Below, piece by piece: positions 3,265-48,565 of a stretch of DNA of 64,000 bases. The DNA comes from Octopus vulgaris. Taxonomy: Eukaryota. The number at the start of each line of letters is the position of its first letter. Positions within the stretch are counted from its first letter, which is position 1. The DNA lies in assembly GCA_951406725.2 (NCBI GenBank), contig OX597828.1, positions 77,872,001 through 77,936,000 on the forward strand, given 5' to 3'. The notes beneath the pieces are model-generated. The model was not told the DNA's origin. It did no database searches and saw only the letters and a list, made by a program, of their open reading frames with translations. A program made the position numbers and the translations under genes.

Positions 3265-6200
3265 CTACAATGTCAAGAAATTTACTGAGCTAAAAATGGT
3301 TCAGGTATGGTTATGTGGTTTATGAAGTTTGATTTGTAACCAAATGTTCTTAGGTTTAAGACTGCAGTGTGAAACCTTGGGCAGGTATCTTTGATCGTAC
3401 CCATGGGTTGTATGAGTGTAATGCAATAAGCAGAAACCACACAGAAGCCTAATATGTACCTTCTCTATAGCAAGACACCTATTTGCGCCTCCCTCTTTCT
3501 CTGTTATAGTCTAACCTTTCATCATTTGATACTGGATCACCTCCTCTTCTAATGCCCCACCCCCCACTCTGTTGTGGCAAGACATCTGCTTCTGTTTCTT
3601 TCTGTCTCTCTGTCACAACACTAACTTTTCATCCTCTGACACAAGTTCCTTCTCTCATAATTCCTTGTCTTGCGAGTTACTTCTTGGTTGCCCTGCCATT
3701 TCTGATGCCACATTTAAAAAATCCAGTCCCCACTGTAAAGTGGTTGGTGTTTGGAAGGGTATCCAGCAGTAAAAATCATGCTGAAACTAACCTCACCTGT
3801 GCTAGTGCCAAGTGAAAAGCACTGAGTCAACTCTGCAGAGTGGTTGGTGTTAGGAAGGGCATCCAGCTGTAAAAACCCTGCCAAAACAGACAGAGTAGCC
3901 TGGGGTAGTCTTCTACCTGGCTAGCTCCTGTCAACCATCCTACCCATGAATGCATGGAAGATGGACATTAAATGATGATGATGATATATATTGATGATTG
4001 ATTGCAAAGTGTTTGGTGTTAGGAAGGACATCTAACCATAGAAACCACAGACAATGGAGTCTGGTGTGCCCTCCCCACCCTCCTGGCTTTACCAGCTCCC
4101 ATCAAACTGTCCAACTCATACCAGCATGGAAAAACGGATGTTAAATGATGATGATTGATTGATTGATTGGCTGATAGAGAAACAGATATATATACTACAT
4201 AAATTAGGTTGGAAAGAAAGTTGTGTCGCATTTCAAAATGGAGTGGGGGGGGGGGTAGTGAGGATAAATGCTTCTAGGATTTTAATTGATTTCATCAAGA
4301 TATTTTCCCTCATTATTTCATAACAAAATCCCATCTTATATTATTTACATTTGATGGATATTTGTCCTCATCTTGTTTGTTGTTAACAAAATGTTTCGGC
4401 TGATATACCCTTCAGCCTTCATCAGGTGTCTCGGGGAAATTTCGAACCTGCGTTTTCATTCCTAAGGTATTTTGCGATATTATTGGCACGTAAAAAGCAC
4501 CATCCGATCATGGCCATTGCCAGCCTCGCCTGGCCTCCGTGCCGGTGGCACGTAAAATGCACCCACTACACTCATGGAGTGGTTGGCGTTAGGAAGAGCA
4601 TATCAGCTGTAGAAACATTGCCAGGTCAGACTGGGCCTGGTGCAGCCTTCTGGCTTCCCAGACCCCAGTTGAACAGTCCAACCCATGCCAGCATGGAAAG
4701 CGGATGCTAAACGATGATTATTATTATTATTATTATTATTATTATTATTCAGGTCACTGCCTGAAATCAAACTTGGCATATGGTGTAGTGGTTAAGAGTG
4801 CAGGCTACTAACCCCAAGATTCTGAGTTCGATTCCTGGCAGTGACCTGAACAACAACAACATCGAAAAATACCTTAGGAATGAGAACCCAGGTTCAAAAT
4901 TTCCCCAAGTCACCTGATGAAGGCTGGAGGGTATATCAGCCAAAACATTGTGTTAACAACAAAGAAGATGAGGACAAATATCCGTCAAATGTAAATAATT
5001 CCTCATCTCTTAAATATAGAACTGTAAAATCCCAACTATTTAGCATATCATTGATCACTTGCGCATAAAATTCTTCAGCTTTGGAAGCAACAAAACACTA
5101 AATATCATTTCTAACCTCATCACAATTAATTAACTGTTTTCTCTCGAAATCAGTGGTCTGCAACCATTTTTTGCCTATGAACCCCTACTGAATCTCCACA
5201 GCCATTTGATGCTTAAAAAAACGTCTGCTGTTGTTTTTTTTTATATATATCATCTATATAATATTATTAGGAATTGTATCAAAAAAATTTTTTAATATTT
5301 TGTTAACTTTAGAAATATAATCAATTTATTTCATGTAAACTTTAACGACAAAATCTTATATGGACCCCGCCAAAGGTCATATGGACCCCAGTTGAGAGCC
5401 ACTTTTCTAAATAAAATAATGTTGCAATGTTCTGAAAAATTGAGTCAGATGAAGAGAACGAGGCTGATGAGGCAAAACTTCTAAATTCACTGCCAAATGC
5501 TTTTCCTGAGTGACTTGGGCGATATGTGGTCGTACGTTACCATGTAAGAGCAACACCTGTGTCTCAAGTATTTTGGATCACATTTGTAAGGTTGCGGGTT
5601 CGATTGCCAAAGGCATTGTGTCCTTGAGCAAGACACATTATTTCACTTTATTGCTCCAGTCCACTCAGCTGGCAAAAATGAGTTGTAGCTGTATTTCAAA
5701 GGGCTGGCTTTGACACATTTCGTATCACACCGAATCTCTCTGAGGACTATGTTAGGGGCATGCATGTCTGTGGAACGCTCAACCACTTGCACATTAATTT
5801 TTCAAGCAGGTTTTTCCATTGACCAGACTGATGTAACCAACGGGGTACCAGATTTTAAGAGCAACCTCCATTTACAACTGATCAAGGAGAAGCACCTTTT
5901 CTGCTGCAATGCTTCCAACAACCAACAATGCTTCTCCACATTTTGGTTTCACATTTCATGACAGCTGCTACTCTTCATGTCTCACCAAACACAGAACATA
6001 ACTTTTTCCCTTGTCTTGTCAATGGTATGTGATGGTGGTGGTAGTGGTGGTTGTTCGTTTGTGATAAAATATGGACTGGTAGTAAATGTGATGGTGGTAG
6101 TGTTGGAAAAGGGTACTCACTTTACAGGGGTGAGATAAAGTCCACGAGTTTTAGTTGTGACCAGACCGACTATCTCCAACATAATCCATCTTGTAAGAAG

Positions 6201-47994: not shown

Positions 47995-48565
47995 TAATTA
48001 ATTAAGGGTAGAAATCAATATTTATCAATTAAAACCAGTGGTCTAACATATTAAAAAAATCCGAAGATTAAATATTTATATATACCAATTAAGGACTGAA
48101 CACGAAAAAGTGGACAGTCAACATGCTAGATATAGACGTCAAATCGCCATTCTCCACAAAAGATTATGTTCTCAGATCAAACTCAACACAAACCCAAGCA
48201 ATAAACAAGTGAAAATATACGAAAAACAATACTTATCCATGTACTGAATCAGTTTCGACTATTATTATCTGTAAGGATACCCGTAGTCTTCATCAGCATG
48301 GCCGGTCTGAATGAAATCTGCTGAACTAGATGCAAAAACGATACCGGAGTATCATCACGTGCGTAGAGTTCAACCGATTACATCCGAATGTGTATTTCAA
48401 ATGCTTTTCGTATATTTTCACTTGTTTATTGCTTGGGTTTGTGTTGAGTTTGATCTGAGAACATAATCTTTTGTGGATAATGGCGATTTGACGTCTATAT
48501 CTAGCATGTTGACTGTCCACTTTTTCGTGTTCAGTCCTTAATTGGTATATATAAATATTTAAATA
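47995..48565 (-). mobile_element. Fold-back hammerhead element (HHR family 6)
   Basis: 158-bp inverted arms 48068-48225 / 48405-48562, HHR in the spacer, (TA)n flanks. Confidence 0.85.
48237..48301 (-). ncRNA. Minimal type-I hammerhead ribozyme (family 6)
   Basis: ccatg CTGATGA a gacta..tagtc GAAA ctgattcag TA catgg. Confidence 0.8.

Follow-up and report, generated by a model that had tools for sequence, protein, structure and literature searches.

The window, a 64-kb stretch of the Octopus vulgaris genome (contig OX597828.1, positions 77,872,001 to 77,936,000, on C15 of the 2.8-Gb genome), carries eleven minimal hammerhead ribozyme (HHR) motifs. We assign these with considerable confidence to truncated copies of six families of Penelope-like elements (PLEs). 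Two of the families, A (four motifs) and B (one motif), would be terminal repeats of protein-coding PLEs, while the remaining four, C to F (six motifs), would be head-to-tail units lacking an open reading frame (ORF) and likely copied in trans. The motifs had been noticed in a preliminary description made from the sequence alone, and all eleven were found where it had placed them, its positions being the lowest coordinate of each motif. The elements, and the host gene in which most of them lie, are as follows.

3201..27990, minus strand: host gene, nine matched coding exons of a GEN1-type flap endonuclease
4340..4485, minus strand: family A inverted arm, HHR (core 4425, defects in stems I and III) and tail, the latter read as the first Poseidon-type codons
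4486..4716, strand undefined: unrelated repeat, read as a short interspersed nuclear element (SINE), inside the (AAT)n of the inverted family A arm
4717..4773, minus strand: rest of the inverted family A arm, with (AAT)n and, from the tRNA-like head, the 3' part
4774..4850, plus strand: family A tRNA-like head, A box at 4781 and B box at 4826, 34 nt between them
4851..5025, plus strand: family A, (AAC)n, ORF ATG at 4880, HHR core at 4914 (GAAA to AAAA), tail to the long 3' end
9827..9995, plus strand: family B, 5'-truncated putative 3' untranslated region (UTR) of a Hydra-clade PLE
9857-9960, plus strand: family B HHR with a U4C core (CCGATGA), a long stem II and CAATTG as stem III, the cut being predicted after 9956
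16020..16337, minus strand: family C inverted arm, short 3' end; canonical HHR at 16214-16285, predicted cut after 16220
16330..16790, plus strand: direct arm of family C, amounting to about one unit of 430 nt and having the long 3' end; canonical HHR at 16449-16520, predicted cut after 16514
24020..24567, minus strand: family D solo copy, almost one 564-nt unit, in (TA)n; canonical HHR at 24309-24371, predicted cut after 24315
25191..25665, minus strand: one arm of family E, in which a 355-nt unit is partly repeated in tandem; HHR at 25360-25405 with C3G
25666..26010, plus strand: family E opposite arm; HHR at 25697-25742, also with C3G
40306..40356, minus strand: family A inverted fragment, HHR core at 40346 (GAAA to AAAA, CG to TG)
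40426..40572, plus strand: family A copy without head, ATG at 40446, HHR core at 40480 (GAAA to AAAA, stem III altered), short 3' end
47995..48410, minus strand: copy of the 510-nt family F unit, truncated at its 5' side and with the long 3' end lying in (TA)n; canonical HHR at 48237-48301, predicted cut after 48242
48402..48562, plus strand: inverted arm of family F, lacking an HHR, with the short 3' end lying in (TA)n
24030-24050 (minus), 16705-16715 (plus) and about 48005-48015 (minus): TTTTACCCT-like motif near long 3' ends

The GEN1 coding exons, one of which is a 98% match to an Octopus GEN1 protein, run from 27990 to 3201 on the minus strand, so that eight of the motifs are intronic and three lie upstream of the first coding exon; the proposal that the elements colonise host introns is borne out for the eight only. 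As had been said, exactly four motifs are fully canonical (16214 and 24309 and 48237 on the minus strand, 16449 on the plus strand). The other seven are variant or defective in core or stem: mismatches in stems I and III in the family A motif at 4385, GAAA changed to AAAA together with decay of the CG in stem III in those at 4909, 40306 and 40475, the U4C core variant in family B at 9857, and C3G in both family E motifs (25360 and 25697).

Each family gave between 1,425 and 2,935 first-look candidates in the genome, which are not copy numbers; the best 40 were scored and 30 fetched. The GIY-YIG endonuclease was searched with PF01541, and clades were given by the motifs described in PMC8557442 rather than by a reverse transcriptase (RT) tree. 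All six families display 5' truncation, inverted 5' copies and discrete 3' ends, with two end sites that are clear in A, D and F, a main site and a minor one in B, and looser ends in C and E. Together with the ORF links of A and B, these features support the identification of the motifs as PLE hammerheads. An inverted partial copy accompanies four of the six families in the window (A, C, E and F), as the preliminary description had it, the inverted arm of F being devoid of ribozyme.

In family A the ribozyme is preceded by an (AAT)n tract and a 75-nt head, and some copies continue further upstream into an ORF with RT and GIY-YIG domains and no zinc-finger linker. Translations of broken copies, inspected by eye, contain DKG and GxKF/Y-type motifs and no zinc-finger linker before the GIY-YIG domain, and by these motifs the parent is assigned to the Penelope/Poseidon type. 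The head begins within 70 nt of the ORF end in 23 of the 23 loci whose ORF match reaches its 3' end (7 of the 30 do not reach it), and the tail directly precedes the 5' part of the ORF in 21 of 29 loci, with the core included in 14. By this arrangement family A is taken to be a pseudo-long terminal repeat (pLTR) on both sides of the ORF, that is, a partial tandem. At locus L321 an ATG located upstream of the core opens a single unbroken frame that crosses the HHR and continues into the ORF, which means that the supposedly non-coding tail corresponds to approximately the first 47 codons of the protein. The 3' ends fall 80-99 nt after the core in 50 of 92 cases and 110-129 nt after it in 36 (ca. 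85 and 118 nt). Targeting of microsatellites, claimed for these elements, fits C, D and F, which are mostly in (TA)n, and was rejected for family A, whose (AAT)n is internal to the element and of whose 92 3' ends only one is followed by (TA)n.

The genome contains 848 exact copies of the perfect family A ribozyme, and three copies in 200 kb suggest, very roughly, some tens of thousands of copies in total. Among 81 copies, non-CpG differences amount to 3.3% in the core and 3.2% outside it, and reach 25-27% at CpG positions; we therefore rejected selection on inserted copies in favour of neutral decay, and most damage in the family A motifs of the window is due to CpG decay. Tandem arrangement is found in only 2 of 59 loci. 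Two independent loci (L262:1310-1750 and L273:1180-1750) have the same tail-to-head junction in tandem short units without an ORF, with spacings of 273 and 286 nt.

What the preliminary description overlooked in family A is its tRNA-like head, with an A and a B box, situated between the stop codon and the ribozyme. The boxes lie 34 nt apart in 58 of 62 head matches. Among 30 loci selected on the head, 27 also have the ribozyme tail and 20 have an inverted 5' piece. For an unbiased view of the 5' ends we took the first 60 perfect-ribozyme copies listed on C1, regardless of head: 13 had no upstream match, 23 ended in (AAT)n or within the head, and 24 kept the A box. Of these 24, 19 end at positions -15 to +10 and three at -16 to -18, so that 22 end no more than 18 nt upstream of the head, and the other two run more than 400 nt into the ORF. 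In score-selected sets, 36 of 48 5' ends were at -15 to +10. TTTT, the stop signal of RNA polymerase III (Pol III), occurs in only 4 of 50 head-to-tail spans. From the 5' ends at the head and the rarity of TTTT we infer Pol III transcripts copied by the enzyme of the parent, and we lean slightly towards the view that the majority of the short A copies derive from Pol III transcription initiated at the head. SINEs are normally the partners of LINEs (long interspersed nuclear elements). The short A copies have neither a LINE-shared 3' end nor a simple-repeat tail at their terminus; their 3' side is part of a PLE ORF and has two discrete ends, with (AAT)n internal, and by these features they would work like a SINE without being a classical LINE-dependent one. 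The chances are about even for the complete scenario, in which a Poseidon element captured a tRNA-type Pol III promoter in its pLTR and so gave rise to a SINE of its own. The Pol III RNA, 250 nt long and made up of the head, the ribozyme and the first ORF codons with the reverse transcription start sites, would have been copied by the telomerase-like RT of the parent, in tens of thousands of events.

The strongest competitor, somewhat less probable in our judgement, is that the 5' boundary reflects RT stalling or RNA processing at a hairpin just before the head, the short copies being ordinary truncated PLEs and the head a passenger relic of a SINE. A palindromic hairpin does exist just upstream of, and including, the start of the head, and the head fails tRNA models: neither Rfam nor default ARAGORN called a tRNA in it, both of which weigh against a Pol III origin, and ARAGORN with a lowered threshold gave inconsistent calls. 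Truncation is common anyway, as 36 of the 60 unbiased copies end before the A box. On the other hand, only two of the 24 copies cross the boundary, both by over 400 nt, this is also where inverted 5' pieces frequently end, the box spacing is fixed and T-runs are nearly absent. Moreover, the ends cluster near -9 and -1, ca. 6-14 nt before the A box, which is where starts of type 2 Pol III promoters are expected. Similarity of the head to genomic tRNA-Ser(GCT) gave a z of about 5-6, this being the only isotype compared and one picked by a head-biased pattern. A tandem cluster of tRNA-Ser(GCT) genes, with 19 pattern matches in ca. 45 kb, was found at L347-L356 (C3 near 70.85-70.90 Mb).

The closest published relative of the family A parent is PAc, the Poseidon element of Anolis, in which the HHR also overlaps the start of the ORF, two internal RT start sites ca. 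30-40 nt apart give a tail comparable with the two ends of A, and targets are AT-rich rather than microsatellites (PMC11167929). Unlike PAc as described there, family A has a tRNA-like A/B-box head and (AAT)n in its pLTR, and most of its head-keeping copies begin at the head. In the schistosome Sm-alpha/Sj-alpha, short retroposed repeats likewise have a hammerhead after a promoter of Pol III type (PMC6765202), but these are described as tandem, SINE-like and without a PLE ORF, whereas A is a Poseidon-type pLTR that is rarely tandem. We found no published PLE with a tRNA-type promoter in its pLTR in the literature, Repbase, Dfam, SINEBase and supplements lying outside this search; family A may be filed in one of those databases as a SINE or as Penelope.

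Family B leads to a different clade. In 7 of 30 B-selected loci (e.g., L248) a GIY-YIG domain with a CxCX5C linker lies upstream, and this linker fits an origin of family B as the 3' UTR of a Hydra-clade PLE (PMC8557442). Core position 4 is C in 24 of 31 aligned rows; this U4C change lowers activity in vitro and is tolerated in a viroid (PMC3088659). Several further PLEs with open frames were encountered. One is a very young Hydra type with a 717-aa frame (L448:2101-4620, also L447 and L449), which has RWK and DKT motifs and a U4C HHR core with an extra base before GAAA, and whose best-scored 150 endonuclease matches are all 100% identical. Another Hydra type (L450:1296-5870) has an ORF of ca. 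980 aa into which a long Asn-rich stretch is inserted, and a 3' UTR of 1.5 kb; its HHR is canonical, and relatives show many stem variants of it. A young Neptune type (L241:906-5720, also L242-L244), present in many near-identical copies, has a separate upstream ORF, an open 781-aa RT/GIY-YIG ORF and an HHR with a U3-A8 core variant. Judging by their open frames, young PLEs that could supply the enzyme exist in this genome (Neptune 781 aa, Hydra 717 and ca. 980 aa), the Hydra types, like Neptune, in numerous near-identical copies. [quoted passage not shown]

Families C to F have units of ca. 430 (C), 562-568 (D), 349-355 (E) and 501-510 nt (F). Head-to-tail junctions without any ORF between the tail and the next ribozyme were found in all of them, and no PLE ORF was linked in the right place in the 30 loci of each family. 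The view of these elements as protein-less is thus borne out for C, D, E and F, and is ruled out by ORF-linked genomic copies for A and B, that is, for 5 of the 11 motifs. Same-strand HHR pairs were present in 12 of 29 loci of D, 4 of 29 of E, 2 of 27 of F and none of 26 of C. Family D is young, with identities of 97-99% and canonical cores in 51 of 53 sampled ribozymes, and assembled contigs of putative RNA runs cover most of it, two of them bridging the predicted cut site, which speaks neither for nor against cleavage. Both D and F have two 3' end sites ca. 95 nt from each other, and (TA)n comes next in 28 of 29 cases for D and in 27 of 32 for F. For C the corresponding figure is 15 of 31, a count that, like the long end, is unreliable given that the C reference ran into its own (TA)n. 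In the window, the long 3' end of C has a 16-nt tandem duplication (16748-16787, 2.5 copies) that does not appear in the other family C copies read. Target-site duplications, viewed by eye only, are obscured by the microsatellites. The fold-backs often have one arm with the short and the other with the long end, a combination described for PLE tails (PMC8557442).

The covariation of stems that had been seen between families was confirmed among genomic copies of E and F by compensatory changes. In F, 98% of stem cells are paired and two pairs have double changes; in E, the values are 96% and five; the covariation score was reached by none of 500 shuffles in either, these figures being inflated by the relatedness of the copies. 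The family E core is canonical, and the two copies in the window share C3G, a change that abolished cleavage in PAc (PMC11167929). D has a sister family (L455-L477, around 1300-1700) with the 3' tail of D at ca. 70% identity, no linked ORF, and an HHR different from that of D, fully paired and with CGTACG as stem III.

No more than 60 nt from the (TA)n junction, 12 of 30 loci of C, 26 of 30 of D, 17 of 30 of F and 24 of 30 of the sister of D have a TTTTACCCT-like motif, compared with 0-2 of 30 in eight other locus sets. The motif may be the mark of a shared partner or a recognition site. Neighbouring fragments of GIY-YIG in L016, L057, L125, L133, L173 and L174 were considered as partners and rejected, being downstream or in the wrong orientation; we read them as separate insertions into shared (TA)n tracts.

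Several observations weigh against the general assignment. Clades were attributed by motifs and without phylogeny, and an intact ORF of the family A parent was not seen in 60 loci, where the longest stop-free frame was 569 aa. The autonomous partner of C to F was not found, their units having no match to the terminal repeats of the fetched Neptune, three Hydra-type and Poseidon loci. The 3' ends of E scatter more and only 4 of 33 abut (TA)n; besides, only 2 of 32 E copies pass the strict descriptor, because the pair that closes stem II is usually C.A. Family C, with partial tandems only and no same-strand HHR pair in 26 loci, fails the strict definition of a retrozyme, and on that ground it is classed as a non-autonomous PLE-type unit and not as a retrozyme. 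Finally, the HHR of PAc is dispensable for insertion in vitro (PMC11167929) and only one of nine Xenopus retrozyme dimers cleaved (bioRxiv 2026.07.22.740005), which makes the function of the ribozyme uncertain.

It is conceivable, but improbable, that C to F are only truncated terminal repeats of unsampled autonomous PLEs, or arrays grown by unequal crossover at the DNA level. There are many PLE families in this genome and only the best 40 of 1,400-2,900 candidates were scored per genome search, which leaves room for the first of these possibilities; however, the junction from tail to next ribozyme is free of ORF in all four families, and A and B, in contrast, revealed their ORFs within 30 loci each. 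As for crossover, local amplification has been invoked in a recent preprint (bioRxiv 2026.07.22.740005), but the dispersed D copies are 97-99% identical, 5'-truncated, often inverted, and have two fixed ends in (TA)n, as expected of retrotransposition. We keep to units probably mobilised in trans. These resemble the animal non-LTR retrozymes, in which units a few hundred nt long (350-390 nt in mussels) likewise lack an ORF, follow each other head to tail and contain a type I HHR. Those retrozymes have been proposed to be non-autonomous derivatives of PLEs, a proposal that fits C to F (PMC7229834; bioRxiv 2026.07.22.740005). Unlike the retrozymes described in those texts, C to F are mostly dispersed monomers or short arrays with direct marks of PLE insertion, and the units of C, D and F exceed the range of 170-400 nt (PMC7229834).

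The preliminary description had taken all six families for dedicated protein-less ribozyme retroelements in which the fold-back supplies the partner for cleavage as a dimer. Taken literally, this is very unlikely. C to F do lack ORFs, stems covary, and the stem III palindromes are predicted to be more stable as two-strand duplexes than as hairpins; but A and B are joined to RT/GIY-YIG ORFs elsewhere in the genome, and the inverted twins are antisense. In modelled minus-strand transcripts of C and of both A insertions, the core is completely paired to the opposite arm. With the twin motif on the opposite strand, a fold-back would block the folding of the ribozyme rather than enable dimer cleavage, and we rejected it as a dimer partner. 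By their structure the fold-backs are ordinary 5' inversions of PLE insertion. Minimal HHRs cleave weakly, as same-strand dimers (PMC4209133; PMC6765202), and no motif in the window has a same-strand partner within its own element, so that cleavage of the GEN1 pre-mRNA in cis is unlikely. The copies in the window are mostly dead.

We used a type I HHR descriptor, with local dinucleotide shuffles of the 64-kb window as controls. Canonical matches numbered 4 in the window against a mean of 0.005 (maximum 1) in 200 shuffles; with up to one core mismatch there were 7 against 0.15 (maximum 2, 100 shuffles), and with stem II allowed up to 110 nt, 4 canonical matches and 8 with up to one core mismatch against 0.017 and 0.45 (60 shuffles). 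The density of motifs is thus far above that of shuffled sequence, the comparison that the preliminary description had proposed. Another check it had suggested went the opposite way: Rfam/Infernal detected 0 of the 11 motifs, with no hammerhead family at E<=5 anywhere in the window and only miRNA matches driven by microsatellites. Chance matches in AT-rich repetitive DNA can nevertheless be dismissed, despite the silence of the Rfam hammerhead models and the imperfection of 7 of the 11 copies, in view of the shuffles and of the 848 exact copies of the perfect family A HHR and 372 of a 28-nt piece of the family D HHR, for both of which reversed-pattern controls gave 0. In 200 kb of arbitrary genome sequence the descriptor matched canonical motifs 10 times (3.2 per 64 kb), with 7 matches belonging to a single array, so that the window is not clearly exceptional, the sample being small, and its hammerhead density is about typical for this genome. 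That array (L544:2300-4600) has a unit of 353-359 nt and seven identical canonical HHRs, five direct and two inverted, and by its structure is a classical retrozyme-type array.

These elements may multiply in the following way. A tandem master copy would be transcribed, in the case of family A by Pol III from the head, and the RNA copied by PLE proteins, those of the parent for A and those of other PLEs, acting in trans, for C to F. The RT/GIY-YIG protein would nick AT-rich or (TA)n DNA and prime reverse transcription at the target. Copying would begin at one of two internal sites downstream of the ribozyme, as the discrete 3' ends observed suggest, and would often halt early or yield an inverted 5' piece, leaving the fold-backs whose structure is seen here. 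From the literature, the ribozyme would act only in same-strand tandem transcripts, with its palindromic stem III pairing with that of the next copy.

Other features of the window include mobile elements of different kinds. There is no Penelope RT or GIY-YIG ORF, as had been reported, but RT ORFs of LINE type are present. A LINE at 53190-56114 (plus strand) has an open 974-aa frame with RVT_1 and Exo_endo_phos_2 domains and a PHD-like one, which we take to be RTE-like; broken relatives lie at 21662-23406 (plus) and 31969-33270 (minus), and a 62-nt tandem repeat at 56365-56753 follows the frame. Directly upstream of the family B copy, at 9500-9800 (plus), is a decayed integrase-like fragment, presumably Gypsy-like by its motif. 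A 104-aa frame at 51262-51576 (minus) with a C2CH signature, which we assume to be THAP-like, is possibly an exon of an upstream gene or a P-element relic.

Much of this belongs to known kinds. PLE hammerheads, opposite-strand pairs and (TA)n targeting by Hydra elements are already published (PMC4209133; PMC8557442). The motifs of the window agree with the pLTR hammerheads of PLEs in their type I fold, short palindromic stem III and extra nucleotide before stem II, and also in being mostly single motifs from truncated copies, with several families per genome and with pairs on opposite strands separated by 100-700 bp (Cervera and de la Pena 2014, PMC4209133). They depart from that account in the U4C core of the Hydra-type families (B and the young 717-aa one) and in the extra base on both sides of stem II in C and E. 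A 2026 repeat annotation of Octopus vulgaris lists 31 recently active Penelope-like families, and the word ribozyme is absent from its main text (PMC13282606); no description of octopus hammerhead families was found in the literature. What had been noticed in the window correctly rediscovers, in octopus, PLE hammerheads and repeats of retrozyme type. Two families go further. Family D is young, ORF-less and tandem, with intact ribozymes, in a genome that also has open-ORF Neptune and Hydra elements, and this combination makes the mobilisation of retrozymes in trans by PLEs testable with the published in vitro PLE assay. Beyond the known kinds, family A has the appearance of a SINE that arose out of a Penelope element and is copied by it. 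If this is true, a PLE and not a LINE would be what mobilises this SINE, some copies of which still have the parent physically joined to them, and ribozyme SINEs like Sm-alpha may have originated along similar lines.

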